64,000 nt of DNA from Squalus acanthias (taxonomy: Eukaryota), in the NCBI GenBank assembly GCA_030390025.1, contig CM059431.1:143966001-144030000 (forward strand), given 5' to 3'. A model generated the notes under the pieces. The model was not told where the DNA came from. It was given only the letters and a program-made list of their open reading frames with translations, and did no database searches. Shown here in pieces: positions 5,808-47,698 of this stretch. Numbering within the stretch: the stretch's first letter is position 1; each line of letters begins with the position of its first letter. Made by a program: the position numbers and the translations under genes.

Positions 5808-5854
5808 ATTACTACCCCCTGTTTCGCTACATTGGTTCCCATTCCCCTGCCATA

Positions 5855-15907: not shown

Positions 15908-16349
15908 GTAACTGTGTATTTGTCTCTAACTGTTGGGCGAATTGTAGAATAGTCACGGATTGTGTTGTTTGCAAAGTAATGAAGGGAAACAAACAGTTCC
16001 CTTAAATCAGAGAGAAGCAGATTCAACATAAATATGTCCAATAATAAGAGGATCAGTTAGTAATTCCCTAAGGACTGGAGAATCTAGAACGGATCCTTGT
16101 GAACAAGTAGGGTTTTACAGTCTTTATCGTATCAGCAAATACAGGTCACTGAGAGTCTGATAATTTAATTACAGTAAATCATATTTAATAAGGCAGGACA
16201 GCGGAATGTAAACATAAAATATAATCCGGCAGTAAAGATAAAATTAACTTAAAATATTTTACACATCCAACATTTCAACTAGAAATAGGAAAGAAACCGG
16301 AGTTTAAATCACAAACAGTTCGATATTAACTCCAATACCGTTGTGTCTT

Positions 16350-26199: not shown

Positions 26200-27990
26200 T
26201 CTCTGTAACCACTGTCCCTGTGTACAGTGTTTGTCTCTCCCAGTGAGGTGTCGCACTCTGTAACAAGTCTCCCTGTGTACAGTGTGTGTCTCTCCCAGTG
26301 AGAAGTCTGACTCTGTAACAAGTGTCCCTGTGTGCAGTGTGTGTCTCTCCCAGTGAGGAGTCAGACTTTGTAACAAGTGTCCCTGTGTACAGTGTGTGTC
26401 TGTGCCGGAGAGGAGTCGGACTCTGTAACAAGAGTCATAGAGTCATAGTTATAACTGCACAAAAGGAGGCCAATCGGCCCATCGAGTCAGTGCCGGCTCT
26501 CTGGAGAGCAATCCAGTCAGATCCTTTCCCCGCTCTATCCCCGTAGTCCTGCAAGTTAATTTCCTTTAAGTGCCTATCCAGTCTCCCTTTGAAAACATTG
26601 AGTGTGTCTGCTTTCACCACTTCCGTCGGCAGCGAATTCCAGATCCTCACCACTCGCAGCGTAAAAAGATTTTTCTTACATCCCCCCTGTACCTTTTGCC
26701 AAACCTTAAATCTGTGCCCCCAAGTCCTTGTACCACCAACTAGTTGGAACAGCTGTTCCCCGTTTAGCATATCAAATCCCGTCATAATCTTATACATCTC
26801 TATCAAATCACCCCTCAACCTCCTTTGCTCTAATGAGAACAAATCCAGCTTCTCCAACCTATTCTAAGATCCCACATCCCGAAACCATTCTGATAAATCT
26901 CCTCTGCACCCTCTCAAGGGCCATCACATCCTTCCTAAAATGTGCTGACAAGAAGTGTCCCTGTGTACAGTGTGTGTTTCTCCCAGTGAGGAGTCGGACT
27001 CTGTAGCAAGTGTCCCTGTGTACAGTGTGTGTTTCTCCCAGTGAGGAGTCGGACTCTGTAACAAGTGTCCCTGTGTACAGTGTGTGTTCCCAGTGAGGAG
27101 TCGGACTCTGTAACAAGTGTCCCTGTGTACAGTGTGTGTCTCTCCCAGTGAGGAGTCAGACTCTGTAACAAGTGTCCCTGTGTACAGTGTGTGTCTCTCC
27201 CAGTGAGGAGTCAGACTCTGTAACAAGTCTCCCTGTGTACAGTGTGTGTCTCTCCCAGTGAGGAGTCAGACTCTGTAACAAGTCTCCCTGTGTACAGTGT
27301 GTGTCTCTCCCAGTGAGGAGTCAGACTGTATAACAAGTGTCCCTGTGTACAGTATGTGTCTCCCAGTGAGGCGTCAGACTCTGTAACAAGTGTCCCTGTG
27401 TACAGTGTGTGTCTCTCCCAGTGAGGAGTCAGACTCTGTAACAAGTCTCCCTGTGTACAGTGTGTGTCTCTCCCAGTGAGGAGTCAGACTGTGTAACAAG
27501 TGTCCCTGTGTACAGTGTGTGTCTCCCAGTGAGGAGTCAGACTCTGTAACAAGTGTCCCTGTGTACAGTGTGTATCTCTCCCAGTGAGGAGTCAGACTCT
27601 GTAACAAGTGTCCCTGTGTACAGTGTGTGTCTCTCCCATGAGGAGTCAGACTCTGTAACAAGTGTCCCTGTGTACAGTGTGTGTCTCTCCCATGAGGAGT
27701 CAGACTCTGTAACAAGTGTCCCTGTGTACAGTTTGTCTCTCCCATTGAGGAGTCACACTCTGTAACAAGTGTCCCTGTGTACAGTGATTGTCTCTCCCAG
27801 TGAGGAGTCAGACTCTGTAACAAGTGTCCCTGTGTACAGTGTGTATCTCTCCCAGTGAGAAGTCTGACTCTGTAACAAGTGTCCCTGTGAACAGTGTGTC
27901 TCTCCCAGTGAGGAGTCGGACTCTGTAACAAGTGACCCTTTGTACAGTGAGTGTCTCTCCCAGTGAGGAGTCGGACTCTGTAACAAGTGA
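26200..27990. repeat. 55-bp satellite (CTCTGTAACAAGTGTCCCTGTGTACAGTGTGTGTCTCTCCCAGTGAGGAGTCAGA)n
   Basis: Tandem unit read directly; interrupted at ~26432-26950. Confidence 0.95.
26432..26950 (-). mobile_element. CR1 3' fragment inserted in the 55-bp satellite
   Basis: [19 protein letters not shown] and RVVRIWNSLP, a GACTCTAT tail, and ACAAGA at both junctions. Confidence 0.88.
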
Positions 27991-28009
27991 CCCGACAACC
28001 CTCCGAGTA

Positions 28010-28302
28010 CTCTCCACTGCTCCGACCTCTTGCGCATCCTCGATTTTCGTTGCTCCACATTGGCGACATGACTTCAGCTGCCAAGGCCCTAAACTCTGGA
28101 ATTCCCTCCACAAACGTCGTCACAGCTCGACCTCTCTTTCCTCGCCTTTATACGCTTCTTAAATCCTACTTCTTTTACCAAGAATTTGATCATCTCTCCT
28201 AAAATATCTTTACGTGGCTCAGTGTCAAATTTTGACTGAGAATTGCCTCGTGACGTTTCACTACATTAAAGTCGCTATATAAATGCAAGTTATTGTTGTT
28301 GT
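28010..28302 (+). mobile_element. L2-like LINE 3' end
   Basis: FSCQGPKLWNSL..LKSYFF followed by the tail GCTATATAAATGCAAGTTATTGTTGTTG. Confidence 0.6.
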
Positions 28303-28711: not shown

Positions 28712-29240
28712 TAGGAAGGATGTTTTTGCTATGGAGGGAGTGCAGCGAAGATTCACCAGACTGATACCTGGGATGGCAGGAATGAAGTATGAAGAGAGAT
28801 TGGGTGGATTGGGCTTGTATTCGCTGGAGTTTAGAAGAATGAGAGGGGATCTCATTGAAACTTATAAAATTCTAACAGGACTAGACAGACTAGATGCAGG
28901 AAGGATGTTCCCGATGGCGGGGGAGTCCAGAACCAGGGGTCACAGTCTAAGGATAAGGTGTAAGGCATTTAGGACTGAGATGAGGAGGAATTTCTTCACC
29001 CAGAGAGTGGTGTACCTGTGGAATTCTCTACCTCACAAGACAGTTGATTCCAATTCATTAAATATATTCAAGAAGAAGTTGGATGTATTTCTTAAGGTTA
29101 AGGGCATCAAGGGATATGGGGAGAAAGCAGGGACAGGGTACTGAAGTTGGATGATCAGCCATCATCGCATTGAATGGCGGAGCAGGCTCGAGGGGCCGAA
29201 TGGCCTACTCCTGCTCCTATTTTCTATGTTTCTATGTTTC
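28712..29240 (+). mobile_element. CR1 3' fragment
   Basis: [28 protein letters not shown] plus 3'UTR and tail. Confidence 0.92.
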
Positions 29241-29819
29241 GATGAAGGAGCGATCCAATAAGTCCCTCTCACTCCCCGTAGCCCTGCAAACTGTGTCTTT
29301 ACAAGTATACAGTACAATCTGCATCCACCATCCTTTCAGGCAGTGCATTCCAGATCAGAACAACTCGCTGCATAAAACATCCTCCTCATCTCTGCTCTGG
29401 TTCTTTTGGCAATTATTTTAAACCTTTGTCTTTTGGTTAACCACCCTCCTGCCCCGGAAAGAGTTTCTCCCTATTTACTCCATCAGAAACTATCAAATGA
29501 CGTCCATGTCCCCTCAATGTTGTCGCATCGCTCCGAAACACAAGCATTATTTTGAAATGTCCATCCACGGGTTCACTTTTCCGACTTAATTTCCTCTCAG
29601 TCCCTGTTCATCACGCACCAAGTTAACATGTTGTTGTAACATTGCAGGCCGGGCTACTTTAACCCAGGCTTTAAACTCTTTAAAACACAAGGACCACAAT
29701 CGAACAGGAACGTGTTAACCCGACAACAAAACCAGGGCTAAGAGAGAAAATTTAACCCAGGTAATAAACAAACAGAATTCGTGTGGGCCCCATTGTGTAC
29801 AACGTGAGAAGAAGGCCGC

Positions 29820-31430
29820 GTTCAGTCCCCCCTGGAAAATGCCTCGGTCAGTCCCCTCTGGAGGAGGTCTCGGTCAGTCCTCTGTGGAGAGGGTCTCGGG
29901 CAGTTCGCTCTGGAGGAAGTCTCAGTCAGTCTACTCTGGATGAGGTCTCGGTCAGTCTCCACTGGAGGAGGCCTCGGTCAGTCCTTCTGGATGAGGTCTC
30001 GGTCAGTCTCCTCTGGAGTAGGTCTCGGTCAGTCCCCTCTGGAGGAGGTTTCGGTCAGTCTCCTCTGGAGGAGGTCTCGGTCAGTCTCCTCTGGAGGAGG
30101 TCTCGGTCATTCTCCTCTGGAGGAGGTCTCGGTCAGTCTCCTCTGGAGGAGGTCTCGGTCATTCTCCTCTGGAGGAGGTCTCGGGCAGTCTCTGGAGGAG
30201 GTCTCGGTCAGTCTCTGGAGGAGGTCTCGGTCAGTCTCCTCTGGAGGAGGTCTCGGTCAGACTCCTCTGGAGGAGGTCTCGGTCAGTCTCTGGAGCAGGT
30301 CTCGGTCAGTACTCTCTAGAGGAGGCCTCGGTCAGTCCCCTCTGGAGGAGGTCTCGGTCAGTCCCCTCTGGAGGAGGTCTCGGTCAGTCTCCTCTGGAGA
30401 AGGTCTCGGTCAGTCTCCTCTGGAGGAGGTCTCGGTCAGTCTCTGGAGGAGGTCTCGGTCAGTCTCCTCCGGAGGAGGTCTCGGTCAGTCTCCTCTGGAG
30501 GAGGTATCGGTCAGTCTCTGGAGGAGGTCTCGGTCAGTCTCCTCTGGAGGAGGTCTCGGTCAGTCCTCTCTGGAGGAGGCCTCGGTCAGTCCCCTCTGGA
30601 GGTGTTCTCGGTCAGTCTCCTCTGGAGGAGGTCCCGGTCAGTCTCTGGAGGAGGTCTCGGTCAGTCTCTGGAGGAGGTCTCGGTCATTCCCTTCTGGAGG
30701 AGGTCTCGGTCAGTCTCTGGAGGAGGTCTCGGTCGGTCCCTTCTGGAAGAGGGTCAGTCTCCTCTGGAGGAGGTCTCGGTCAGTCCCCTCTGGAGGAGGT
30801 CTCGGTCAGTCTCCTCTGGAGGAATCTCGGTCAGTCCCCTCTGGAGGAGGTCTCGTGCAATCCAGTCTTCAGGCGTTCACGGTCAATATTCTCTGGAGGA
30901 GGTCTCGATCAGTCTCCTCAGATTAAGGCCTCGGTCACTCCACTCTGCAGGAGACACGCTCAGTCCCTTCTTGAGGAGGTCTCGGTCAGTCCCCTCTGGA
31001 GGAGGCCTCGGTTAGTCCCCTCTGGAGGAGGTCTCGGTCAGTCTGCTCTGGAGGAGGCCTCGGTCAGTCCCCTCTGGAGTAGGTCTCGGTCAGTCCCCTC
31101 TGGAGTAGGTCTCGGTCAGTCCCCTCTGGAGGAGGTCTCGGTCAGTCCCCACTGCAGGAGGTCTCGGTCAGTCCTCTCTGGAGGAGGTCTCGGTCAATCC
31201 CCAGTTGAAGCAGTCTCGGTCAGTCCACTCTGGGAGAGGTCCCGTTCAATCCCCTCTCTAGGAGGTCTCGGTCCGTCCCCGCTGGAGGAGGCCTCGGTCA
31301 GTCTCCACTGGAGAAGATCTCGGTCAATCCCCAGTTGAAGCAGTCGCGTTCAGTCTTCTCTGGAGGAGGTCTCAGTCAGTCCCCATTGGAGGAGGTCTCG
31401 GTCACTCTCCTCTGGAGGAGATCTCGGTCA
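29820..31430. repeat. 26-bp satellite (GGTCTCGGTCAGTCTCCTCTGGAGGA)n with 23-bp variants
   Basis: Tandem unit read directly. Confidence 0.95.
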
Positions 31431-31434
31431 GAAC

Positions 31435-32425
31435 TGTAAGTCGTTCTGATTGTCTGAGAGTTTATAAAGTTCAGACCCGTGCAACAAACAACACAAAACC
31501 CAATGAATCTGTGAAACTTCTTTTACTTAAAATGCAACAAGATGTTACAAGTAATTTCCAGAATACAATCTCTACTCAATGCATGTACTTATCACAAACA
31601 AGCATCTAAAATCATTGACTTTAAGCTCAGGTGATTATAAGTAAAACCACATACAGACTATTCACCAGATGAGAGGTCAATTCAACGATGACAGACGTAT
31701 GACTAACTGTAACTGGCACCTGACCAGGTCACCATCGCCTATAGCCCCGAATGTCAGTGTCCAACAACAATTATACCCCAAAACTTGGCAACTCGCCCAC
31801 AGCATTCATGTTTCTAACATTATGGCATAATCGTCATTAACTGTTTCTCAGACCCTCTTATCATTAGTTCATTGAGCAGCTGTGTGTCTCAAGTCTACGT
31901 GCATTCCATAGTCTGAAGAGGTTTCATTATTGCACTGATTTCACAGTCAGTAGCGGGTTCCCACAGAACCTCAATTAGCTTGTTTTCCATATCTGTTGAA
32001 AGGCAATTGGCAGCTTTTTTAGCTTGCACGTCAAACTGTTTATTTTGCAAAGTTCTCACAGCAAACAATCTTTGTCCGCGCGAAGCATGATAGTAAAATT
32101 TGATCAACTGTTACAGCAAATACTGTGTTCTACAGTGTCCACCCTCAAATAGTGTGTTCTACAGTGTTCACCCTCAAATAGTGTGTTCCACAGTGTCCAC
32201 CCTCAAATAGTGTGTTTTACAGTGTCCACCCTCAAATAGTGTGTTGTACAGTGTCCACCCTCAAATAGTGTGTTGCACAGTGTCCACCCTCAAATAGTGT
32301 GTTCTACAATGTCCACCCTCAAATAGTGTGTACTACAGTGTCCACCCTCAAATAGTGTGTTCTACAGTGTCCACCCTCAAATAGTGTGTTGTACAGTGTC
32401 CGCCCTGAAATAGTGTGTTAACACA
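31435..32425 (-). repeat. 3' LTR (outer end ..TTACA firm, inner boundary inferred)
   Basis: 31435-31815 aligns by eye with 41951-42335. The inner end is placed at TGTGTTAACACA just after the env stop. Confidence 0.7.
32125..32420. repeat. 29-bp tandem repeat (GTGTTCTACAGTGTCCACCCTCAAATAGT, about 10 copies) in the putative U3
   Basis: Read directly. Confidence 0.92.
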
Positions 32426-32469
32426 TTGTCCAACCGCAAGTGGCTGTGCATCCAATTCAAGGGTCACAG

Positions 32470-35400
32470 GCACTTACAACTTGTAGACGCTAAGTTCTTC
32501 CTTCGGCCTCTAATGTAACAGCTTGACCAATGCTTGCTGGTTGCGCCGTCGGTTGACTCGGCAAGTTATCGTTAGTAAATATAACTTGGAAAACAGTGAC
32601 AGGACCGGACAAAGCCAACATGGATTTACAAAAGGTAAATCATGCTTGACTAATCTACTGGACTTTTTTGTGGATGTAACTGGTAGAATAGATAAGGGAG
32701 AACCAGTTGACGTGGTGTATTTGGACTTTCAGAAGGCTTTCGATAAGGTCCCGCATCAGAGATTAGCGTGAAAATTTAAAGCACATGCGATTGGGGGCAA
32801 GGTACTGACTTAGATAGAGAACTGGTTGGCAGACAGGAAGCAAAGATTTGGAATAAATGGGTCTTTTTCCGAGCGGCAGGCAGTGACTAGTGGGGTACCG
32901 CAGGGATCGGTGCTAGAACCCCAGCTATTCACAATATATATTAATGATCTGGAAGAGGGAACTAGATTTAATATCTCCAAGTTTGCAGACGATTCAAAGC
33001 TGGGTGGGCGTGTGTGCTGTGAGGAGGATGCAGAGAATCTCCAGTATGATTTGGACAGGTTGGGTGATTGGGCAGATGCATGGCAGATGCTAAATTAATG
33101 TGGATAAATGCGAGGTTATCAACTTTGGTAGCAAAAACAGGAAGGCAGATTATTATCTGAACGGCAATAGATTGGGAGAAGGAGAAGTGCAACGAGACCT
33201 GGGTGTCCTTGTGCACCAGTCGCTGAAGATAAGCATGCAGGTGCAGCAGGCGGTTAAGAAGGCAAATAGTATGTTGGCCTTCATAGCGAGAGGATTCAAA
33301 TACAGGAGCAAGAATGTCTTGCTGTAACTTTACAGGGCCTTGGTGAGACCACACCTTGAATATTGTGTGCAGTTTTGGTCGCCTTATCTGAAGAAGGATG
33401 TTCTTGCCATGGAGGGAGTGCAGCGAAGATTCACCAGACTGATACCTGGGATGGCAGGAATGACGTATGAAGAGAGATTGGGTCGATTGGGCTTATATTC
33501 GCTAGAGTTTAGCAGAATGAGAGGAGATCTCATTGAAACTTATAAAATTCTAACAGGACTAGACAGACTAAATGCCGAGGGAGTCCAGAACCAGGTGTCA
33601 CAGTCTAAGGATAAGGGCTAAGCCATTTAGGATTGAGCTGAGGAGGAATTTCTTCACCCAGAGAGTGGTGAACCTGTGGAATTCTGTACCACAGAAGGCA
33701 GTTGAGTCCAATTCGTTAAATATATTCAAGAAGGAGATAGATATATTTCTTAAGGCTAAAGGGATCAAGGGATATGGGGAGAAAGCAGGGACAGGGTACT
33801 GAATTTGGATGATCAGCCATGATCTCATTAAATGGTGGAGCTGGCTCGAGGGGCCGAATGGCCTACTCCTGCTCCTCCCTTCTATGTTTCTATGTTTCTA
33901 TAACAAAATCACCAACTGAACAATGAACAAATCGTGGGAGATAATTCTTATCCAGGGATGAACCTCAATACTCATACCGATATCCCACCAGAATGAACCG
34001 TTCCCAATCTTAGATATTTCTTTGCGTAATTTCCGGTTTATCTGGGCCAGCGTATAAAAGTACCTTTGAGACTAACTAACTCGGTGCATTAACTCTACCA
34101 GTTGTTCTGGTAGAGGTGGAATGTCATAGCCGAATCGAGTCACGTACTGGTGTAATTGCTCTTTTAATTTATCTTCTACAGCGATATCTACTTGCCTATG
34201 CGAATAAATACTTAATAAATCCCGCGCCCCAAGTCTTACAGGTTTAACTGGGGTAAAGCAAAAAGTTCCCGCCACAATGGGACAAGTCAGGTTGTTACCA
34301 TACGGGTATTCCCGGTGTATGGTCGTGACACAATACTCACCTTTCCCTCGGTACCCAGATTGTACGGGGAAAAGCTTTCCTGCTACTACTTTCATGATGC
34401 AGTTTCACTCTATCCCATCCCAATCGAAACCGGACAAAGGGGCTGCATGTTCTACCACGTCATAAGGGCAGATGAATGTGTCCCGAGCTTGAGCGCACCC
34501 GGTAAGATGTGGGGCCACCCATGTGGTCCCATCCCCCCGGGTCACATACTGCGGGGGTTTGTCATACCTTACTAAGTGGTCTCCCTAGCGTACTCCTATA
34601 TTCTCCACACGGAATAGAGGATTCGGGGTCGCCTTTTCGCGCAGGATAGGATAATCCAACACCATCCCTAATAAGGTGATGTAATTCTGTTCCTGCAAAT
34701 GGCATTCATGTTTCACCGGGTATACCTGTACCAACCCAGTGACTTTACACATGTTGATAGTAAATTGATAAGTGGACATTGCCCTCAGGTGTCGATCAGT
34801 CACCCACAATGGGAGTTCCCCTCAGCAATGCTCTGCAGGTTATCACGGGCTTGTTCCACTAACCAGGATCCATACATTACACAAACATCATTTCCTGCGG
34901 CCTCACTAGAGGCACTCAGATTCTCCTTTAAAATTTGGTTTATCCTTTTAGCGTAAGATTCTAAATAGTTAACCATGTCCTGCAGATCAATGTATCATAA
35001 TTTGGTCCTCCTTCAATTCCTCTTGTTCCAGATCATTCATTTCATTCAGAATTTCCTTTACACGTTTTCTAACTGCCTTTACGGATTGATCCAAATTAGC
35101 AAAATCAAGACTATTAACGAGGGTGTTTCCGGTATTAAAAACAGTGGCTGCATCATTTATCAGACCTCGTCGTGTTCTGATATGGTCCCGTTTAACCCCC
35201 TAACCGACGTTGTTTCCTTCAGTGATCTCAGTATTTCCCCAAAGTTATTGTTAAATACATTACCATCTCCTGATCCCCTGCGATATAATGGGTCGAATTC
35301 CGATTCCCCCAAATTTGTGCTGGCTCTTTCCAAAAATCCTTTTTATTAAATCCCATACCATTCTCCCATATAACCGCGCTGTTTCTGGTTTCCACCAGTC

Positions 35401-36266
35401 CGGTATTCCCACCTCGGTCACATTTAATATCACAGGCACCACCTGGTGATGCACATCATGGTCCAATATCCGAGTTGGGACTCCCACAAACCCATGTGTC
35501 GGCCCCGGAGTGTGTTTGGGAGACAACCCGGGTTTCTCTTGTTCTTCCCGCCATTGTGTTTTATTTGCGGGGGGGGGGGGGCGGAGTGGGGCGGAGTTTA
35601 GGACGGACTTTCACTTTGAATTCTCTGGTATCTGTGGTTCCGTTTACACATTCCGATTCTTCATCAGTAACACACATTTCATGGCCCAGCCCTCCCTCCT
35701 TTTCACCCAGCATCCATTGATAAGGGGGGTCATTTTCTGCACCGGACACAAACGCAGGAGAAAGGCTGCAAACCGGGAATTCGGACCCAAAATTGACCCA
35801 ATTCTTCAGTGGGCCTGGTCGAGTGTTTACACATCCATATATACCCTCAGGCTCCTGCCTCCACCGTGGCCAACACAACATGGTTTCCCCATGGTCTTCC
35901 CATTGAGTTGGGCTCCCATTATATCCCCAAGGTCTCCTATCTGGCGGTAACTAGTATTGTCACCCACCTTTGCCTGAATGAACCATACACGCGGCTGATT
36001 CACAGTCTCACTCTTACACTTTATACATGTTCCCCTCCCTTCTTGGACCGTGTATGTGGTTACCCGGACTATTCCTGAACAACTTGTGTCGCACGGACCC
36101 TTGATAGATCGGAGGGTAACCTCACGGGCGATACCTTGGGGTGGAGTTACGGGGCAATGGTAATCTGACTGTCGTAACTTGAATCGCTGGATGCTTCCCT
36201 ATGAGTTCCTGCTGCCCTTTCGAGATGGAGCGCTATGTCACACAGCAACCAAAATATCCTCCCCAT
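32470..36266 (-). pseudogene. env: env-like glycoprotein gene, frameshifted and split by a CR1
   Basis: Starts at ATG MGRIFWLLC (36266). Contains VVPVILNVT, RTRR|GLINDAATVFNTGNTLVNSLDF (~35170), a heptad helix, Cys-rich YCVTT..CPI..FCFTP, the [21 protein letters not shown] and the basic tail RVNRRR. Confidence 0.85.
32586..33898 (+). mobile_element. 5'-truncated CR1 inserted into the env TM-coding segment
   Basis: CR1 RT and 3' tail, with TATAAC at 32580-32585 and 33899-33904. Confidence 0.93.
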
Positions 36267-36285
36267 TTCTCTGCCTTGTTCTGGC

Positions 36286-36313
36286 CTGTGGAAGAGGGGA
36301 ACAAAGCGGAGAG
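36286..36313 (-). promoter_or_regulatory. Putative env splice acceptor
   Basis: CTCTCCGCTTTGTTCCCCTCTTCCACAG|G lies about 20 nt upstream of the env ATG. Confidence 0.6.
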
Positions 36314-36403
36314 TTACTCCCAGTCCCGCCTCACTTCTTCCCACCATTGGTCTTTAAGGCTCTGCACTGACTATTCACTGGACCGCCTTGGCCGTTTCCC
36401 AGG

Positions 36404-39400
36404 TCATTGCCTCAGATTGTAACCACCATCCTGTACCTGGGGAGGCAGCTCGTCACACGGAGGTGCCTCAGGTGGGGGCGCTGCATTAGGCACCCCTTCT
36501 CCATCATCCCATTGGAGCGGCTGAGTCAGTCTCACCCTGCTCATGATCGTGGCTTGCTGTCTTCTTGACCTGCTTGTGGGCTGAAAAAGCTTCATCTGGT
36601 TAATGTGAAACCATTTGATTTTCTGAGGTAACTGAACCGCGTATACCATAGGACAAGCTTTGTAACAATGTTATACGGTCCCTTGTAGAGGCGTTCGAAA
36701 ACTCCCACCCTTGCATAGTTTCATACCATTACCTGGCTCTCTACTTCCCACTCCTGGGGTTTACTCGGAGTCAGGTGTAATCTGTTGCGTTGGTTTGTCT
36801 TCCCAATGTTGTGGGCGGCTCTCAAGTTCAGTTCTTTCAAAGTTCCCCACAGGTCGCTCAGGAATTTGTCCCGAGTGACTTCTTTCATTTGTTTATCAGT
36901 CAGAGTGGGAGCCAACAGATGTGTGGGGGTTCGCATGGGTCTCCCTTTTGCAAATTCATGAGGGGAGTGAACCGCTTCTTTGAATTTGTTACTATGGATC
37001 CCCATAATGATTAGGGGAAGTACCTCATCCCACTTAGTGTGCTGTTCGTTTAATTCCTTTCACAGGGCCAACTTCAACGTGCGGTTCATTCTTTCCACAA
37101 TCCCTGATGACTGCGGGTTGTGGGTTACGTGCTATTTCCCTTCAATTGCAAACAATTTCAGGGTGGCTTGCATCACTTGCCCTGTAAAATGACTCTCTTG
37201 GTCTGACTCTACCAATCGAGGGAGCCCCCATTTAGAAAATATCTCCCTAACTAGGGTCTTGGCCGTCCACAATGCTGCGGCCCACTTGCACGGGAAAGCT
37301 TCAACCCACTTGGTAAAATTCTCCACTTGGACTAGACAATATTTATTGTCCTTCTTAGTGTTGGGCAGGGGTCCGATGAAATCTATCTGGACACACTGCC
37401 CCGGTCCCTCTGGTCGATGGGAGTTTCCGAGGGCAGCCTTTCTTTTATGTGGGTCAGGATTGTTAGCAGCACACACTAAACAGGTTTTACACTAATCTTC
37501 TATGTCTTTCCTCAGATGAGGCAACCACCCTACCTCCTCGACCCGCTTCCAGGTTGTTTCGTGTCCGGTGTGTCCAGCCCCCAGTCCTCCGTGAGCGAGC
37601 TGCATGAATTCCTCCCTGTATCCCTCGGGCACAATCCACTTCTCTCCTTTGAACAACATACCTTACCTGATGTTTACATCTTTGGCCCCATAAGGCCCTT
37701 CTACAATCTGACCTGCTTCTCTTTCCTTGAGGACAGATTTTAGCACTACATCTGTCAGCTGTATTGTTTTGATATCCGGGGGAAGCGGAATAGTAACAGC
37801 CGGAGTGATGACTGCTCCCACTCCCGATTGATACGGGTCCCACGGGACGCCGATCTCCGCTCCCACCTTAGCAAGCTCGTCTGCTTTCCTATTTCCCTCC
37901 CCTCTGGGTTCTGCTTTTAAGTGGGCTTTGACCTTATGGATATAGTATTACTCGTCTCCCCCTCTTATGACTTCCGCTATGTTTGCCAGTATTGGTGCGG
38001 TAACCAGTGACTTGCCATCTGCTGATTTAAAACCTCTTCGAGCCCAAATCGCCAAATATTCTGTGCAAGAATCACATGTAAACATAGAGTCAGAGCAGAT
38101 CGTAGAGGGCGGGGTGCAATAGGTGGGATGTGTTACCACATAAGTTCCAGCTGCTAACTCTGTCTGCTGAGCACTGAGAGTGGTGGGTAGCTTAATCGCC
38201 ACTTCCATTCCTTTCTGTGGGTCGTAAATTCCACATCCTGTTTTACGTTCCCCCTTTTCCACAAAACTAGACCCATCCACATATATGTCTCTCCCTTCAG
38301 GGTGGATACCAGGTTTGAATCTGCCTTCTATTTCCCACACCCCCTCGACTGTACAAGTGTGGGGTTCCCCCATATATATAAGGCTGGGTGCTAATTTCAG
38401 ATCGTTTATCAGTTTCACTTTCAGGTTCATCCCTTCTAACTGTAGGGTCCATGTAGCGACCCGAGTGCATGGCACTGTTCCCTGCTTAATTCGGCCTTCT
38501 ATCATGAGGCGGGTTGGCGTGTGGTGGGTGAGGAGAGTGATGGGCTGGGTCCCCGGGAATACGGCAAAATGCTTCACTGCCCAGAATGTGGACAGCAAGT
38601 GCCGCTCACAGGTAGAGTATCCCTTCTCCACCTCAGATAGCACTTTGGTGACATAAGCAACTGGTCTCAGACTCCCATTCACTTCCTGCATTAAAACTGC
38701 ACTCAGATTGACGTCTGTTGCCGCTAATTCCAAAAAGAAGTAATCTTAGGGTCTCCGGCCCCAATGCTGGGGCTGTGTGTAGGTCCTTTTTCAAATTTAC
38801 AAAAGCTTCCTCACAGCGCTCATCCCAATCCCATTTCCACTCCCTTTCTGAGTAATCTCAGCAAAGGAGCTGCCGTCGCTGCCTAATTCTCAATACATTC
38901 TCTACAGTACCCTGTCAGACCCATGAATGATCTGAGAGCAGGTATTGAACCCGGGCGGTGAAATTCCTGGACAGTTTGGCGCTTTGCTTCGTCTATCGCG
39001 CGCTCCCCTGGTAGAATTGTCAATCTAAGAAACTGAATCTCTCTTTGCCCTATCTGTGCCTTCTTGGAATTTACCTTGAAACCTACGGCTGCAAGCGATT
39101 CTAACACTTCCTGCAGTAGTTGCTCATGTCCTCTTCGCTATCTGAGAACAGCAGTAAATCATCTACATCCTGCACAAGCTGGCCTGGCTGACTGAATTCT
39201 GATAGGCTGTTAGCCATACACTGGTGGACAATAGACGGGCTATTGTGGAATCCCTGTGGCAAACAAGTCCACGCATACTGCTGACATTTAAAGGTAAAAA
39301 CAAACTTATACTGGTCCTGCGGGTGTGAGGGAATTGACCAGAATCCATTATATATGTCCAATACTAGGAACACAGGGACAGAGCTGGGAATGTTGCCGAT

Positions 39401-40228
39401 TAAATCAATCACAGCTGCTCCTGTGGGAGCACAAGCAGGGATGGTTTTATTCAAGACTCTGTAATCTACAGTCATCCGCCAGGAATTGTCTGGCTTCATT
39501 ACCGGCCAAACAGGAGAGTTAACATGCATCACAATAGGTCTCAGGACCCCTAGTTCTACTAAGGACGCAACAGCTTTTTCTCAGTCTCTCTCTCTGCTTC
39601 CTTGGGGAACGTGCACTGTTTCTGGGGCCGGGACATTGGCTCACCCTCCACACCCACCTCACATCCTGTCCCCCTACCACAATCATGTCTGTGGGTAGCA
39701 CAAGCACCCTTGATATTCTGCACTGCGGTTTGATACCTCTCGGGCACCCTGGCCGTTAGTGTTTCTAAGTCATCGGGTCCCGCAGGTGTTACCACCCACG
39801 CTTCTCCATGTCTCGGGGGTATAACGATTACTTCTTCACCACAGTCCACTCCGCCCCACAAACAGTTATTATCCATATCCACTGTCACATTGTGAGCCAA
39901 CATCCAGTCAGAGCCCAGCACTCCCATTCCTGGCTGATCCCATTTCATTAGTAAACATCTCCACTTAGTTTGTAGGGGTCCGACTGTGAAGATTAAAGGT
40001 TCTGAGACCGCCCCAGCTGCTGAGTTACTCGTGAAACCTCCTAAAACATAGGGGGCGCCACTTGACCAGGGAGACGACATCGGGGATGGAGAGTGGATCT
40101 ACCTTGCTTGACGCTCCAGTGTCTATCAGATAGTCCCCTCTCTCGCCCTCAATCAGGATGTCTACACACGGTCTTCCCCAATCACCGTACCTGAGTGGAC
40201 ACAGGTACTCGGGCTGGGCGCGGCCCCG
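36404..40228 (-). pseudogene. pol: pol: protease, RT, tether (degenerate RNase H), RNase H, integrase; several frameshifts and stops
   Basis: PR YLIDTGAS (~40120). RT NSPVWPVMKPDNSWRMTVDYR, LDIYNGFWSIP, WTCLPQGFHNSP and QDVDD (YVDD mutated). Tether LRPVAYVTKVL..E. RNase H YVDGSS, AQQTEL, SDS, HKVKAH..GNRKADELAK. IN HHCC, QIDFIGPLP, SDQESHF, PQSSGIVERMN and GPY. Confidence 0.93.
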
Positions 40229-41901
40229 TCATGCTCGGGTCTCCCCGCGATCCTCCCCATGGGCCGCGTGGACCTTTCCTTGAGATGGTTCAAGCTCCTT
40301 CATCTGATTAGCTACATATCTAATGAAATCCTGATAACTGGGGGCGCTGGGCTGAGATTCTGCCTCTCGTGGGGCAGCCTCAACCATTTCTTTCCCAGGT
40401 GATCTTTTACAGTTCCGGGCATAATGTCCCACCACCCCACAGGCAGAGCACTTCTTTCCCTGACTCCCCTCTTGTAGCCACTTCCGATGTGCCCCCCCCC
40501 CCTTCATTTCATAGACTGTGCCTTTTGACTTGCTTATTACCCCGGAGTTATTTTTATCGACCTGGCGCGCCTCGAAACGCAGGGGCATTTTCCGCAGCAC
40601 CCTGACCTCAGTATTGGTGATATCTCCTGGGTCAAACTCCGCCATTGCGGCTTGTAAATAGGGCAGATTGTGGGAGATCAGTGTCCGCAACCAATGGTTC
40701 CGCGCTTCTCCGTCGAGGTCTGCTCTCCTTACCGGCCCTCCCATGGCGCATTATAGGTCGGCCATAACCTGTCAGCAAAAGCTGGGTGTTCGTTTGGGCC
40801 TTGATCCACGTCCGCCACGGCCTTCAAATGATCCCCTTTACATTGTCCCAAAACCTGGGCAAACCTCAAATTTAGCGCATCGTCAGTGCCCTCTCCCCTC
40901 TTATTCTCTGGTGGAAGTCCAGCAAAGACACTGGAGCTCAGGGTAAACAGCAGCAAGCGCTTCTTTACCTCCTCAACCAGGTGATTTAAAGCGGCCCTCT
41001 CTTCTCCCTCCAGATAATGTCCTTGGGGGTCCCCTCCCATTGCCAGCTTGTTCATATCACTGGACATTTTCCTTAACTCCTCAGTATTATACGGGTCCAC
41101 AAGCTCCCTCTCTAGCGCCCCCAACGCTCCTTCACCCGCCCCCATGGCTGGTGCCTGGGACCGTTTGTGACACATCAGAGCCATAGGTGGGGGTCTGACT
41201 CCCTCCGGTGGGCTATTTCCAGGTTGTGGGCCCCCATCCGGGTGATTTTTATCAACCCCTTTGCTATCCTGCAGATCTCCTCCAAACACAGGAGTCCTGG
41301 CCCACACAATACACCTCTGGACCTTCAACTTTTCCCCCAGCTCCCTAATCAATTCCGTACATTCAGTGTGATCCCCGGCAGCACTCCGGTCCTCCAGAGC
41401 CTGTCTCTGAGTGACCCTGAATGCAGCCTTCAGATCCTCATCAGCTTTCGCTGCTCGTTCAGCCCGATCTCTCTGGTTAGCCGCCTCCTCTGACCAAACA
41501 GCACACTGATTCTGATTATTTACACACCGGCTCTCAAGGTACTGCTCTTTATTACACCACCTCTCCTTTACCTTTTTAAGCTGTCCCCTCAGCCTCTTCT
41601 TAATTTCTCTTTCGTCGTCTAATTGCGATCGAAGCCGTTTTACAACCGCTTCCTTATCACTGCCATCCTTTGCCATCTCTTCCATCTCCTTATGCATCTG
41701 AGCCATTTTACACACATCATTCTTAAACTGCCTCTGGTCTGCCATTAATAAGACGGCCTTTACCATCCTTGGCCGGCAGTTGGACCCTTGGCTCCACTGT
41801 TCAGCCTCAGCCACTGGGTCAGCACCATCAATAATGACCCGTACCCACCGCTCCCTGAGGGGTAACTTCGCTCTCACATATTTCCTGACTAACTCATCCA
41901 T
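40229..41901 (-). pseudogene. gag: gag with a long coiled coil and one CCHC knuckle; frameshift near 40740
   Basis: Starts MDELVRKY just after the PBS, has a charged heptad region, and contains CSACGVVGHYARNC. Confidence 0.88.
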
Positions 41902-41927
41902 TGTTTTTGACAGTTTGTTCCGAACGA

Positions 41928-41945
41928 GTCCCTGTTCGGGTACCA
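41928..41945 (-). promoter_or_regulatory. Primer-binding site for tRNA-Lys(UUU)
   Basis: TGGTACCCGAACAGGGAC matches the canonical Lys3 PBS TGGCGCCCGAACAGGGAC at 16/18 positions, 5 nt from the LTR end. Confidence 0.9.
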
Positions 41946-41950
41946 GGATC

Positions 41951-42335
41951 TGTAAGATGTTCTGATTGTCTGAGAGTTTATAGAGTTCAGACTCGGGGAA
42001 CAGACAACACAAAACCCAATGAATCTGTGAAACTTCGTTTACTTAAAAATTAACAAAAGGTTACAAGTAAATCCCAGAATACAAACTGCACTGAATTCAT
42101 GACCGTATCACAAGCAAGCATCTAAAATCATTGACTTTAAGCTCAGGTGATTATAAGTAAAACTACATACATACTGTTCACCAGATGAGAGGTCAATTCA
42201 ACGATGACAGACGTATGACTAACTGTAACTGGCACTTGACCAGGCCACCATCGACTATAGCCGCGAATCTCAGTGTCCAATAACACTTATAACCCAAAAC
42301 TGGGCAACTGGCCCCCAGCATTCATGTCCCAAACT
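41951..42335 (-). repeat. 5' LTR remnant (R/U5 side; upstream part apparently missing or divergent)
   Basis: Direct repeat of 31435-31815 that ends ..CTTACA next to the PBS. Confidence 0.85.
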
Positions 42336-42649
42336 GTGGGGAATGTTGTTTTCCTCTCTCTCTCTCTCTCTCTGTTTTGACGCTCAGCTCTCCAAGGCAA
42401 GACTCCAAGGACTGCAAAGAGTCATTGTTTTTCATACCTGCAGGGCTGTTGAGGTTCTCACAGAATTTTCAAGAACTTATCTTCTGACGGAAATGTACCA
42501 GCTCATTATAAGTTTTGCAAATGTTTTTAACCAAAAGTCTCTTGCCCTCAAAGCTTTTCGGTGCATTTGGTCACTTATAGATTCTGTCAAATGGAGATCC
42601 AGAAAGTTTACCAGGACAGATCTATTTTTGGGCCTCAACTATTCACCGC

Positions 42650-43580
42650 TTTTATTAACGAGTAAGTAGATGGGATTGAGAGCCACATATCCACGTTTGA
42701 CGATGTCAGAACGATAGGCCGCATATAAGCAGGTTTGATGGAAGCAAGAAATTAGAAGAGATATTAATAGATTAAGTGATTGTACAAAAATTTGGCAAAT
42801 TGATTTAAATATAAGCAAATGTGAGGTCATCCATTTTGGATCTAAAATGGAGAGATCGGAATACTTTCTAAATGGTGAATAGCTGGAACCAGTGGATATC
42901 CAAAGAGACTTAAGGGTCCATGTACATATATCTTTAAATTGTCATGGACAGGTACAGAAAATATCAAAAAGGCTAATTGAATGGTGATATTTATATCTAT
43001 AGGACTACAATATAAGGGGGGGAATTTATGCTACAGCTACAAAAAACACTGATTAGACCACACCTGGAGTACTGTGCTCAGGTCTGCGCATCACAACTTA
43101 GTAAGGATGTATTAGCCTTAAAGAGTGAAGTGTAGATTTAACAGAATGATACATAGAGATCAAGGGTTAAATTATGAGGCGAGATAACACAAGCTAGGGT
43201 TGTATTCTCTGAAATTTAGAAGCTTAAGGGGTGATTTGATTGAAGTACTCACGACATTTAGGGGAACTGACAGGGTAGATAGAGAGAAGCTATTTACGAT
43301 GAGTCACCAGTCAAGGACTAGGTGACCTAGCCTAAATATTAGATCCAAGCCTTTCAGGAGTGAAGTTAGGAAACACTTCTACATGCAATGAGTGGTAGAA
43401 ATGTGTAACTCCCGTTTGCAAACAGCAGTTGATGCTGAGTCAATTGTTAATTTTAAAGCTGAGCTTGATAGATAGTTGTTAACCAAAGGTATTAAGGGAT
43501 CTGGAGCAAACCGAGTTATGTCACAGATCTCATTGAATGGCAGAAAGGCTCGAGGGGTTAAGTGGCCAACTCCTGTAATA
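42650..43580 (+). mobile_element. Old CR1 RT and 3' fragment, paralogous to 48430-49365
   Basis: Degenerate RPHLEYC and [10 protein letters not shown] motifs; shares its 3' flank with the second copy. Confidence 0.75.
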
Positions 43581-43847: not shown

Positions 43848-46800
43848 ACATAGAATCATAGAAGATAGGAGCAGGAGTTGGCCATTCGGCCCCTCTAGCC
43901 TGCTCCGCCATTCAATGCGATCATGGCTGATCATCCAAATTCAGTACCCTCTCCCTGCTTTCTCCCAAATTCCTTGATCCCTTTAGCCTTAAGTAATATA
44001 TCCAACTCCTTCTTCAATCTATTTAATGAATTGGCCTCTACTGCCTTCTGTGGCAGAGAAGTCCACAGGTTCACCACTCTCTGGGTGAAGAAATTCCTCC
44101 TCATTTCTGTCCTAAATGGCTTACCCCTTATCCTTAGACTGTGAACTCTGGTTCTGGACTCCCGGCCATCGGGAACATCCTTCCTGCATCTAGTTTGTCC
44201 AGTCCCGTGAGAATGTTATAAGTTGCAAAGAAACCCCTCTCATTCTTCTAAACTCCAGCGAGTATAAGCTCAATCGACCCAATCTCTCTTCATAAGTCAT
44301 TCCTGCCACCCCAGGTATCAGCCTTGTGAATCTTCGCTGAACTCCTTCCATGGTAAGAACATCCTTCCTCAAATAAGGCAACCAAAACTGCACACAGTAC
44401 TAAAGGTGTGGTATCACCAAGGCCCTGTACAACTGCAGCAAGACATCCTTGTTCCTTTACTCAAACCCTCTCACTATGAAGGCCAACATACAATTTGCCT
44501 TCTTAACCGCCTGCTGCACCTGTATGCTTACCTTCAGCGACTGGTGCACAAGGTCACCCAGGTCTCGTTGCACTACCCCTTCTCCCAATCTATTGCCATT
44601 CAGATAATAATCTGCCTTTCTGTTTTTGACAACGAAGTGGATAACCTCGCATTTATCCACGTTATATTGCATCTGCCACGCTTCCGCCCAATCACCCAAC
44701 CTGTCCAAATACATAGATACATAGATACATAGAAGATAGGAGCAGGAGTAGGCCATCCGGCCCTTCGAGCCTGCTCCGCCATTTAATGAGATCATGGCTG
44801 ATCCTCCAATTCAGTATCCCGTCCCCGCCTTCTCTCCGTAACCCTTAACCCCTTTTGCCTGTAGAAATATATCTAATTCCCTCTTAAATATATTTAATGA
44901 GCTGGCGTACACTGCCCTCTGTGGCAATGAGTTCCACAGGTTCACCACCCTCTGAGTGAAGAAATTCCCCCTCATTTCTGTCCTAAATGGTTTAGCCCTT
45001 ATCCTTAAATTATGTCCTCTAGTTCTGTTCTCACCCGCCAAGGGAAACATTCCTTCTGCATCTAGTCTGTCTAGACCTGTCAGAATTTTATACACTTCTA
45101 TGAGGTCCCCTCTCAATCTTCTAAACTCCAGTGTGTACATCCCTAAACTACATAGTCTCTCCTCATAGGTCAATCCCGCCATTCCTTGTATCAGCCTGGT
45201 GAATCGCCGCTGCACCCCCTCCATGGCAAGAACATCTTTCCTCAGATGAGGCGACCAAAACTGTACACAGTACTCGAGGTGTGGTCTCACCAGTGCCCTG
45301 TACAGCTGCAGCAAGGTATCCCTGTTCCTGTATTCCAACCCTTTTGCTATGAAGGCCAGCATACCGTTTGCCTTCTTGACCGCCTGTTGCACCTGCATGC
45401 TCGCCTTCAGTGACTGGTGTACAAGAACACCCAGGTCTCTCTGTACTTCCCCCTCTCCCAATTTATTGCCATTTAAATAATAATTTGCCCTCCCGTTCCT
45501 GCACCCAAGGTGGATAACTTCGCACTTGTCCACATTATAGTGCATCTGCCATTTATCCGCCCAATCACCCAGTCTGTCCAAATCGCTCTGGAGCTTCCTG
45601 GTCTCCTCCTCTGAGCCCACCCCCCCTCCTAGTTTAGTGTCGTCTGCAAATTTGGAAATGCTGCATCCGACTCCCTGATCCAGGTCATTAATGTAAATTG
45701 TGAACAGCTGGGGACCCAGGACAGATCCCTGTGGTACCCCACTTGTTACTGCCTGCCATTCAGAAAATGAGCCGTTTATTCCAACTCTCTGTTTTCTATC
45801 TGACAGCCAGTTCTCTATCCACGTCAATACTTTCCCCTTTATCCCATGAGCTTCAATTTTCCCTGCTAATCTTTTATGTGGGACCTTATCGAAGGCCTTT
45901 TGGAAGTCCAGGTACACCACATCTACTGGCTCTCCCCCATATATTTTACCAGTTACTCCCTCAAAAAATTCCAATAGATTAGTCAAGCACGATTTACCCT
46001 TTGTAAATCCATGTTGACTCTGTCCTATCCTGTCCCCATTTGCTAAGTGCTCCGCTATTTCATCCTTAATGATGGACTCCAGCATTTTGCCCACAACTGA
46101 TGTAAGGCTTACAGGTCTGTAATTACCTGCTTTTTCCCTACCCCCCTTTTTGAATAGTGGGGTAACGTTAGCTACCCTCCAATCGATGGGCACTGTTCCC
46201 GAGTCTAATGAATTCTGAAAAATCATACTTAGTGCATCCGCTATCTCTAGGGCCACCTCCTTCAGCACCCTAGGATGCATGTTATCAGGCCCTGGGGATT
46301 TGTCCGCCTTCAATCCCTTTAGCTTCCTTAACACCATATCCTTAGAGATATTGATTTGCGTCAGTTCCTCCTTTGCAAATGTCCCTATTTTTCCCGATAT
46401 CCCAGGGAGGTTTTTTGTGTCTTCCTTCGTAAAGACTGACCCAAAGTATGCATTTAGTTGGTCTGCCATTTCCTTATTTCCCGTTATATATTCCCCCGTA
46501 TCTGACTGCAATGGGCCAACTTTGGTTTTCACCAGTCTTTTCCTCTTGATATACTTATAAAAGCTTTTGGAGTTAGTTTTTATATTTTCCGCCAGCTTGC
46601 TTTCGTAAGCTATTTTGCCCCTCTTGATTAAGCCCTTTGTCCTCCTTTGCTCTATCTTAAACTGTTCCCAATCTTCCGCTCTGGTGCTTTTTTTGGCTAT
46701 TTTATACGCCCTATCTTTGGATTTTATGCTGTCTCTAATTTCCCCTGTTATCCACGGTTGAGTCACCTTTTTAGATTTCCTTTTATGCCAGATTGGTATA

Positions 46801-47698
46801 AACAATTTTTGCAATTTTGTCATTCTATCTTTAAATGCTTGCCATTGTTTATCTACCTCCAGTCCTCCCAGGAACGTTGTCCAATCAGACCTGCTCAGTT
46901 CCCGTCTAATGGCATCATAATTCCCCTTGTTTAAATTCAGGACCTTAGTATCTGAGTCAATTTCTTCGCTCTCCATTTCGAGTGAGAAATCGATCATGTT
47001 ATGATCGCTCTGACCCAAGGGTCCCCGTACAACAAGATTACTAATTAGTCCCTTCTCATTGCACAGTACCCAGTCCAATATAGCCTGTTCCCGAGTTGGT
47101 TCCTCGACATATTGATCCAGATAACCATCCCTTAAACACTCAAGGAATTCCTCCTCCTCATTATTTTTATCCTGGAGTTTCTCGGCATCCTCCTCGCAGC
47201 ACACACGCCCACCCAGTTTTGTGTCGTCTGCAAACTTGGAGATATTACATCTAGTTCCCATGTCTAGATCATTAATATATATTGTGAATAGCTGGGGTCC
47301 AAGGACCGATCCCTGCGGTACCCCATTCGTCACTGCCTGCCACTCGGAAAAAGACCCGTTTATTCCACCTCTTTGCTTTCTGTTTGCCAACCAGTTCTCT
47401 ATCCAGTCTATACCTTGCCCTCAATCCCATGTGCCTTAACTTTACACGCTAATCTCTTATGCGGGACCTTATCAGAAGCCTTTTGGAAGTCCAAATACAC
47501 CACATCCACTGATTCTCCCTTATCTATTTTACCAGTTACATCCTCAAAAACTTCCAGTAGATTTGTCAAGCATGATTTACCTTTTGTAAATCCATGTTGA
47601 CTTTGTCCGATCCTGTGACTGTTTTCCAAGTGCTCAGCTATTACTTCTTTTATAATGGACTCTAGCAATTTCCCCACTACCGATGTCAGGCTTACCGG
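43848..47698 (-). mobile_element. Decayed CR1 (43848-44710 plus 47171-47698) interrupted by a younger CR1
   Basis: The RT sequence is colinear across the gap (EEDAEKLQ // LDRLGDWAEAWQM). Confidence 0.88.
44711..47170 (-). mobile_element. Young 5'-truncated CR1 with an uninterrupted ORF2 from the late endonuclease to the stop
   Basis: About 785 open codons (EEEFLECLRDG..KGYGEKAGTGY*) and an (ATCTATGT)n tail. Confidence 0.93.

Follow-up and report, generated by a model that had tools for sequence, protein, structure and literature searches.

A decayed provirus in the Squalus acanthias genome from a large endogenous retrovirus family with a predicted F-type envelope protein

The window analysed here is a stretch of 64,000 nt from Squalus acanthias (GenBank assembly GCA_030390025.1, contig CM059431.1, positions 143,966,001 to 144,030,000, forward strand), and the element of interest is a provirus that lies on its minus strand at approximately 31435–42618 (all positions are those of the window). 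An original prediction made from the sequence alone described this provirus as near-complete and similar to the lokiretroviruses (Loki), a sister lineage of the retroviruses. In our assessment, this endogenous provirus is dead and probably stems from a canonical retrovirus lineage that has been hugely amplified in the genome and is most likely the clade of the snakehead retrovirus (SnRV). The locus itself is ordinary, one decayed, apparently recombinant and duplicated copy among thousands, and its value is as an entry point to the family.

Every predicted part, namely two long terminal repeats (LTRs), a primer-binding site (PBS), gag, a pol that encodes protease (PR), reverse transcriptase (RT), tether, RNase H and integrase (IN), and env, was found, colinear and on the minus strand (Table 1). 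The canonical Retroviridae features are therefore present, that is, the order LTR–PBS–gag–pro–pol–env–LTR, a tether with an added RNase H, and an RT that separates from those of Ty3/gypsy elements. The domains were located by Pfam searches of window translations (17 and 12 pieces), with IN matching Integrase_H2C2 (E 1e-8) and rve (E 1.2e-10) and scoring 99 bits with the integrase of prototype foamy virus (PFV). The motifs quoted in the original prediction for RT and IN (LDIYNGFW, WTCLPQGFHNSP and DFIGPLP) are there, but the catalytic box of the window copy reads DVDD and not YVDD. Near-complete is likewise apt for the layout but not for the coding regions, which are heavily broken by frame changes and in-frame stops: the frame of pol, in which a dual RNase H can still be read, changes near 40100, 39585, 39130, 38750 and 36640 and its translated stretches include 11 in-frame stops, and the last stretch of env includes three. 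The PBS, TGGTACCCGAACAGGGAC, fits a tRNA-Lys3-type PBS at 16 of its 18 positions, and the PBS of one further copy (c7b) differs from it at CpG-type positions.

This copy belongs to a very large family. In the 3.7-Gb assembly, first-look candidates numbered 9451 for env, 6429 for gag, 3391 for the gag–pol junction and 2615 for the LTR, and in each of the env, gag and junction searches all 150 scored matches were significant, down to 42–45 % protein identity. Relatives elsewhere retain long open frames, including a pol of 1291 aa (L040, 3688–7563), an env of 715 aa (L023, 4801–6948) and an open C-terminal part of gag together with PR and RT (L042, 3661–6639), and hence some subfamilies must be much younger than the window copy.

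The closest Pol relative, P0001, is 1145 aa long and 71 % identical over the RT piece, and other Pol relatives come from the frogs Pyxicephalus, Aquarana, Rhinophrynus and Xenopus and from the coelacanth, with RT fragments of relatives in a sevengill shark and an electric ray. A tree was built from 39 RT-connection sequences, made up of the window, its relatives, six Pols like that of murine leukaemia virus (MLV, also MuLV), three of the YIDD/dUTPase type and ten from Ty3/gypsy elements, and without SnRV, Loki, Odin or foamy sequences. In this tree, the retrovirus-type Pols, including that of the window, form a clade apart from the ten Ty3/gypsy Pols with support of 100/100, and the window is grouped with P0001 and P0088, again at 100/100. 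The predicted retrovirus-like character of RT and IN is upheld, and no grouping of the RT inside Ty3/gypsy was seen. XtERV-S of Xenopus, also considered as a member of the same lineage, was rejected on account of its YIDD, dUTPase, Ser PBS and gamma-type transmembrane subunit (TM). A scan of IMG/VR for named retroviral landmarks returned one uncultivated contig at 22 % identity and was of no use.

The placement within the retroviruses rests on motifs and short blocks. Of 19 close relatives (‘group A’), 16 share the motif LPQGF with the window, two more have LPQGL and one does not match the pattern; PFG was found in all eight gypsy rows that match the pattern. Statements about published systems, here and below, refer to the available parts of the sources (PMC7947760, PMC4422223, PMC9040795, PMC12440569, PMC11089739, PMC11468914, PMC5512871, PMC10699275, PMC6001957, PMC13524379, PMC8278194, PMC13517186, PMC12193657, PMC12583693 and PMC10581153). 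Among the RTs printed in the supplement of the Loki paper, those of Loki have PFG (CPFGY, CPFGL or LPFGY) and those of MuLV, foamy viruses and SnRV have LPQGF. Identities between P0001, used as the intact stand-in of the family, and these printed RTs were counted by eye over short blocks. Over a block of 53 residues there are 24 with SnRV, 22 with simian foamy virus (SFV), 20 with MuLV and 20 with Loki-Lca, and over 28 residues around LPQG there are 18 with SnRV, 14 with SFV and 13 with Loki-Lca. The RNase H stretch YLAIWARRGFKSADGKSL agrees with YLAVWKRRGMVNADGSQI of SnRV at 12 of 18 positions. On these counts pol would be placed, provisionally, in the SnRV clade.

Scores of the family profile against PDB sequences were 392–398 bits for the MLV RT with RNase H (RT-RH), 361–375 for foamy virus, 260 for the Ty3 RT, 143 for HERV-K and about 100 for HIV. 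A class I control Pol (P0073) scored 428 bits with the MLV RT-RH and 211 with foamy virus, and P0001 scored 222–230 bits with MLV, compared to the 428 of the control. Gag_p30, the MLV-type integrase C-terminus and a gamma-type TM are absent from the window and its close relatives and present in the controls (P0073, P0074, P0077 and P0091).

The gag of the window has a frameshift near 40740, which an alignment exposes. Its N-terminal part is rich in coiled coil, and the single CCHC knuckle, CSACGVVGHYARNC, at approximately 40406–40456 (Pfam zf-CCHC, E 2e-4, and E 2.9e-7 in the relative L042), agrees with the prediction, which had drawn attention to it as a feature that foamy Gag is without. Gag also contains QGPNEHPAFADRLW, which we take to resemble the orthoretroviral major homology region (MHR). 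No capsid match was obtained for Gag in Pfam, and among PDB sequences the zinc knuckles were the sole matches. Atlas language-model features of Gag lie at 0.82–0.86 to capsid-type families, which is a lead only, and an AlphaFold model of Gag from a six-row alignment (pLDDT 47.2) was too poor for a structure search.

Directly after the TGA that ends gag, and in the same frame, the protease begins. When 150 scored junction matches of 43–100 % identity were counted by hand, a TGA was within approximately 136, eight were without a stop and six had only TAA or TAG. The TGA is at the same position in the diverged relatives L040 and L042, ahead of RG.AQPEYLCPL, and the stop contexts in the family are UGACGG and UGAAGA. 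Conservation of the in-frame TGA through the family implies gag–pol readthrough, and we infer, from sequence, that Pol would have been made by suppression of the TGA. Gag, an in-frame stop and then protease is the readthrough layout that SnRV and the gamma- and epsilonretroviruses also have. In its available part, a 2026 review gives readthrough as used by SnRV and several fish and frog retroviruses, in the contexts UGACGA and UGAAGA for fish retroviruses and UAGGGC for SnRV.

Though decayed, env can be followed in the order surface region, cleavage site, fusion-peptide position, heptad region, cysteine-rich beta domains, second helix and membrane anchor. The cleavage site is of the furin type (RTRR, 35167–35178) and is followed by GLINDAATVF at the fusion-peptide position, and the membrane anchor is at 33901–33960. 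Neither the env of the window nor the open frames of its relatives (586 and 715 aa) match anything in Pfam or among PDB sequences. When the 715-aa frame was the query of an exhaustive search, 42 relatives were recovered at E≤1e-3, the named ones being uncharacterised proteins of three sharks, one skate and two frogs. A word-indexed search with the window env read through its breaks gave 2214 candidates, none of them at E≤1e-3. A cartilaginous-fish host is also made probable by the closest relatives of env and RT. None of 37 members of the env family matches PF00523 (Fusion_gly) or the foamy Env family at E≤1, and no F protein was recovered when PDB sequences were searched with the family profile. 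A search for PF00523 over the whole genome gave no matches either, in a stricter first look that also left the control genomes empty and so does not show absence.

The fold was approached through an AlphaFold model of the 715-aa homologue L023. Foldseek returned 224 matches to this model at E≤1e-3, and all 36 of those listed (ranks 1–49) are F proteins of paramyxo- or pneumoviruses, the best among them being the F protein of human parainfluenza virus 3 (hPIV3; 1ztm, E 1.9e-10). With VIA-align, the model gave a Z of 11.3 to the post-fusion F protein of Langya virus (325 residues, rmsd 6.1) and of 8.7 and 8.3 to foamy Env in its prefusion (8rm0) and post-fusion (8RM1) forms. Atlas language-model features of env lie at 0.94 to the F0, Baculo_F and gypsy-Env clusters, gypsy-Env being the top cluster. 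Hence the Env of this family is predicted to be an F-type class I fusion protein by its modelled fold, with no match to Pfam or PDB at the sequence level, and the original description of env as non-canonical holds, in that both fold and language-model features are those of the F proteins of Mononegavirales, the hallmark of lokiretroviruses.

The C-terminus of a frog Pol model (P0003, residues 1196–1300) matches the N-terminus of an env relative (P0034, residues 1–107) at 48 % identity (E 2e-29), and since this Pol continues into the N-terminus of env, pol and env travel together outside the sharks too. An Ig-like head is suggested for the N-terminus in relatives by the ‘Ig-like’ source name of P0009 and by one weak V-set match. 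In the literature searched, no report of an F-type Env in shark, frog or SnRV-clade endogenous retroviruses (ERVs) turned up, and no statement was found on the Env fold or the Gag motifs of the SnRV clade. Some annotated genes appear to be parts of this lineage. The Pyxicephalus gene model P0003, named ‘NYNRIN-like’, is really a Pol of the lineage that continues into an Ig-like Env N-terminus, and three shark models, Niban-like P0016, cadherin-related P0024 and F-box P0040, contain env pieces and are probably annotation chimeras.

Several points weigh against assignment to the SnRV clade or against the reading of Env. The retroviral clade of the RT tree is an unresolved polytomy in which the close relatives do not form one clade (two changes), and the SnRV link comes from hand counts over short printed blocks. 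What the PDB scores show is limited to a roughly equal distance of the lineage from MLV and from foamy viruses. Foamy virus outscores MLV for the 159-aa RT piece taken alone (93.8 against 72.6 bits), and for IN the highest-scoring match is the PFV integrase (99–122 bits). SnRV is complex, with accessory open reading frames (ORFs) and an Env tail of 136 residues, and the window family has neither, its tail being short. The 90 nt past the TGA, folded for two sequences, could not be distinguished from shuffles (z 0.33 and −0.63), and a readthrough structure is therefore not supported; the 7-bp hairpin common to both proves nothing. The env model has a mean pLDDT of 63.9 and is confident only for residues ~160–580, and the VIA-align Z values of 8–11 are only moderately over the background stated for the tool.

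The foamy scores of RT and IN raise the question of whether the provirus is instead a foamy-like ERV (FLERV, or ERV-Spuma), a group known from pol in sharks and a frog, so that gag and env would be its hitherto unrecognised parts. We regard this as unlikely, though besides the RT piece, whose best solved match is the foamy PR-RT, and IN, it is favoured by the VIA-align matches to foamy Env and the Lys-type PBS. In addition, a 2017 study has shark FLERVs clustering with a frog FLERV with only pol detectable, which is the same host pairing, and Song et al. 2023, as far as the available text goes, report no Gag or Env domains in shark ERV-Spuma. However, the full RT-RH scores higher for MLV than for foamy virus, and the motif-C region (FS....L.QYVDDLLL) is like that of MLV and SnRV and unlike that of the printed RTs of foamy viruses, coelacanth endogenous foamy virus (CoeEFV) and AliFLERV; coelacanth members of the family, such as P0004, plainly differ from the printed CoeEFV RT. 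The CCHC knuckle of Gag and the in-frame stop ahead of pol are both un-foamy, and the Pfam lists of the window and its relatives include no match to the foamy-specific Gag, Env or PR families. Moreover, only ~165–190 bp separate the env stop from the LTR in seven dispersed copies, which leaves no room for accessory genes, those of the bel/tas type included. The published FLERVs could be the same lineage as the window family, in which case only the name would change, and the family or a relative of it may already be described in Wang, Chen & Cui 2023 (J Virol), on a cartilaginous-fish endogenous foamy virus.

The original prediction itself, in which the provirus is a lokiretrovirus or belongs to a sister lineage outside the canonical retroviruses and extends that group to the cartilaginous fishes, is in part supported, but as a whole we consider it quite improbable. 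The F-type fold and features of Env and the dual RNase H are in its favour, and cleavage site, fusion peptide, coiled coil and membrane anchor are all found in the F-like architecture of Env; relatives occur in frogs and the coelacanth, which are also Loki hosts, and the RT is deep-branching, the 20 of 53 identities counted with Loki being little below the 22 with SFV and level with the 20 with MuLV. In the 2020 Loki screen the three Orectolobiformes genomes were all negative, so that Loki there would be new; the available text of the Loki paper lists no cartilaginous-fish host, and C. milii is in its list of screened genomes. Neither feature is diagnostic, however, because foamy Env, and thus a canonical retrovirus, shares the F-like core and because all retroviruses have a dual RNase H. 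Furthermore, the family has LPQGF where every printed Loki RT has PFG, SnRV is closer than Loki in all three hand-counted stretches, no env member of the 37 reaches PF00523, no F protein is found among PDB sequences by the env profile, and the gag–pol junction is of the canonical readthrough type. Membership in the lokiretroviruses is accordingly not sustained, a position neighbouring them is unlikely, and no extension of their host range has been shown. That the provirus is an env-carrying Ty3/gypsy element of the errantivirus kind and not a retrovirus can be all but dismissed. In favour of it are the F-type Env, which errantiviruses typically have, gypsy-Env as the top Atlas cluster and the GPY/F motif of IN. 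Against it, the RT is separated from all ten gypsy Pols with full support, the provirus has a tether with added RNase H and the LPQG motif, and an eLife 2026 study, in its available part, reports no vertebrate elements homologous to the invertebrate errantiviruses.

We therefore retain the canonical lineage, and the history of this particular copy can be read from its LTRs and flanks. The outer border of the 5' LTR had been put at 42335, for an LTR of 375 bp. When the junction of the 5' LTR and its flank was searched against the genome, 16 of the 40 matches scored among the 2615 first-look candidates start at query positions 182–211, corresponding to window positions ~42619–42590 and lying ~290 bp upstream of the predicted LTR start. 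In dispersed copies, this extra segment is found ~165–190 bp after the env stop and so is part of their 3' LTR; the LTR is therefore ~670 bp long and the border is at ~42618. The two LTRs of the window were initially apparent as a direct repeat (31431–31730 and 41947–42246, 90 % identical), which extends to 381 bp at 89.8 %.

In the family, the LTR occurs in two variants, distinguished by an internal U3 segment of ~240 bp, with type A in four and type B in three of seven dispersed loci. The window provirus combines the two, its 5' LTR being of type A and its 3' LTR of type B; the type A segment corresponds to the 3' LTR of the dispersed copies L015, L017, L020 and L022. Reverse transcription gives a new provirus two identical LTRs. 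No target-site duplication fits the ends, the 5' flank ending in ...ATAGATC and the 3' flank beginning with GTTCTG.... Different U3 types together with the lack of a target-site duplication suggest that the provirus is a recombinant formed after integration from two members of the family. The shared 381 bp differ by 14 transitions and 25 transversions, hence by more transversions, and the Kimura two-parameter (K2P) distance is 0.110. This value had been sought for dating the insertion, but since the LTRs are of different types it is not an age and was rejected as a clock. The LTRs of the window are not sisters, and the locus serves as an example of invalid dating by LTR divergence.

Twenty-four of the 40 scored junction matches, that of the window included, continue into the same 5' flank, so that at least 23 other loci share it, and the 26-bp satellite follows the 3' LTR in six of seven near copies fetched, the stretch of the seventh (c139) having ended inside the 29-bp array. 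The flanks considered were 42619–43472 and 28900–31431. These copies are 92–95 % identical, closer than the window's own two LTRs are to each other, and several are on contig C7 within ~4 Mb. The common flanks and satellite indicate that the recombinant locus was segmentally duplicated. The 29-bp array has taken the place of the 3' LTR over its first ~50 nt and is much longer in the duplicates c29 and c139, and the LINE (long interspersed nuclear element) fragment next to env is absent from the dispersed copies and from the duplicates c1065 and c7c.

Table 1. Provirus in the window and the repeats in and next to it
Feature	Position	Strand	Comment
5' LTR, ‘type A’ U3 segment	41951–42618	−	~670 bp; only the last 381 bp match the 3' LTR
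PBS TGGTACCCGAACAGGGAC	~41928–41945	−	4 nt past the 5' LTR end
gag	40229–41901	−	ATG at 41901; in-frame TGA end at 40229–40231; one frameshift at ~40740
Protease, LIDTGAS	39587–40228	−	One frame change at ~40100; RVP only E 0.24; aligns to PR of P0001 and to the pol frame of L040
Reverse transcriptase, two frame pieces	38886–39586	−	RVT_1 E 4.2e-20 and 4.5e-4; LDIYNGFW, WTCLPQGFHNSP; DVDD box
Tether (degenerate RNase H), then RNase H1-type RNase H	37951–38857	−	RT_RNaseH 2.5e-16, RT_RNaseH_2 7.8e-13, RNase_H 1.3e-9
Integrase	36571–37662	−	HHCC zinc domain; DDE core with DFIGPLP; YKGPY (GPY/F) C-terminal motif; 5 in-frame stops
env remnant, at least 8 frame pieces	33901–36353	−	Identity of 65 % with the 586-aa open frame L015 and of 38 % with the 715-aa frame L023
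LINE fragment, 1.3 kb	32585–33899	+	RT pieces (RVT_1, weak); immediately follows the env stop
29-bp tandem array, 10.4 copies	32117–32419	−	Appears to amplify purine-rich GAGGGTGGA just upstream of the 3' LTR
3' LTR, ‘type B’ U3 segment, 5' end truncated	31435–32106	−	Type also in dispersed copies L016, L018 and L021
26-bp satellite, 63 copies	29822–31431		Adjoins the 3' LTR; flank, not virus; common to the duplicated loci

Taken together, the live virus would have primed reverse transcription from a Lys-type tRNA and made a Gag with a capsid-like part and one CCHC nucleocapsid knuckle, with Gag-Pro-Pol presumably produced by readthrough of the in-frame UGA and Pol carrying PR, RT, tether, RNase H and IN. 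Cell entry would have been via a furin-cleaved class I fusion protein of the paramyxovirus F type, with an N-terminal head that is Ig-like in relatives. Two members of the family may then have recombined, leaving different U3 variants at the 5' and 3' LTRs, and the recombinant may have gained the LINE fragment and the 29-bp tandem expansion; segmental duplication appears to have carried the locus and its flanks, including the 26-bp satellite, to at least 23 further loci.

What is worth following is an F-type Env on an orthoretrovirus-style gag–pol, encoded by an env without recognisable sequence relatives. We tentatively raise the possibility, doubtful at present, that a lineage of canonical type (MHR-like, CCHC-containing Gag, UGA readthrough, LPQG RT) with an F-type, Ig-headed Env exists in sharks, skates and frogs, with pol relatives in the coelacanth, and that the F-type fusogen is ancestral or very old in retroviruses. 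This reading also draws on foamy Env with its F-like core and on Loki Env, which is F-like by sequence. If so, this fusogen would not be a private acquisition of the lokiretroviruses, and the gamma-type Env would be a later replacement. This would matter for the four scenarios of origin in Wang & Han 2022, where, in the available text, canonical and Loki Envs are argued to differ in origin. Together with the foamy Env structures of 2024, it would make the ancestral retroviral envelope testable by structural phylogeny.

Other features of the window were noted in passing. A 612-aa open frame at 14073–15911 (+) has a P-loop (GVPGIGKTT) and by eye a NACHT/NLR-like look, and may represent one large exon of an NLR gene of host innate immunity. 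Long LINE frames encoding endonuclease and RT, one of 869 aa, are at 3038–6802 (−) and 44811–47420 (−); the LINE fragment in the provirus is of their kind. Frames at 16889–17602 (+) and 61485–63667 (−) are similar to each other, are rich in Pro and Ser with a C-terminal part rich in Cys, and belong to another repeat family, and an open frame at 27374–28147 (−) of a repeated ~23-residue peptide (…HCTQGHLLQSLTPH…) is another tandem array near the satellite.

Among known systems, SnRV is the nearest by hand count in its RT and RNase H motifs (LDISNGFWSI, EECQY.FAFTF, QQYTW..LPQGFH.SP.IFHQ and LQYVDD.LL) and has gag and pol likewise in one frame split by a readthrough stop, but this stop is UAG in SnRV and UGA in the window family. 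ERVs of the SnRV clade are known from fish, amphibians, reptiles and birds, and SnRV-like ERVs from the elephant shark have been described as the lineage I CmiERVs (Han 2015); ‘clade Huo’ is that of Xu et al. 2018.

The foamy viruses share with the family the F-like core of Env (PDB 8RM0/8RM1), a Lys-type PBS and, among solved structures, the closest integrase (PFV), and FLERVs share the pairing of shark with frog hosts. They differ in that the family has a Gag with a CCHC knuckle and an MHR-like motif, a pol that follows an in-frame stop, no accessory genes and an RT motif-C region unlike theirs. ERV-Spuma.0-Sca, with LTRs of 866 bp and coding sequences of 2259, 2946 and 1326 nt for gag, pol and env, has another gene-size pattern. 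The lokiretroviruses (Wang & Han 2020; lokiorterviruses since 2022) share the LTR–gag–pol–env layout, the dual RNase H and a furin-cleaved, Mononegavirales F-like Env with fusion peptide, coiled coil and membrane anchor. In contrast, their RT has PFG in place of LPQGF, the Loki paper gives a sequence match of their Env to PF00523 at E 2.2e-7 where that of the family has none (0/37), and the smc gene is absent from the window family.

The F proteins of paramyxo- and pneumoviruses have the same class I fold as is predicted for model residues ~171–645, the best matches being the post-fusion F proteins of hPIV3, Langya virus, Nipah virus, Newcastle disease virus and respiratory syncytial virus, and the nearest language-model clusters, which carry Fusion_gly, Baculo_F and Gypsy, add a likeness to the F proteins of errantiviruses and baculoviruses. 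The family Env nevertheless differs from all of these in having no match at the sequence level, an extra N-terminal head of ~160 residues (Ig-like in relatives) and a retrovirus-type gag–pol beside it. Finally, the gamma- and epsilonretroviruses differ from the family in the Gag_p30, MLVIN_C and gamma-type TM that it lacks, unlike the control Pols P0073 and P0091, and resemble it in the gag–stop–pol readthrough layout, the top RT-RH score with MLV and the QYVDDLLL region.

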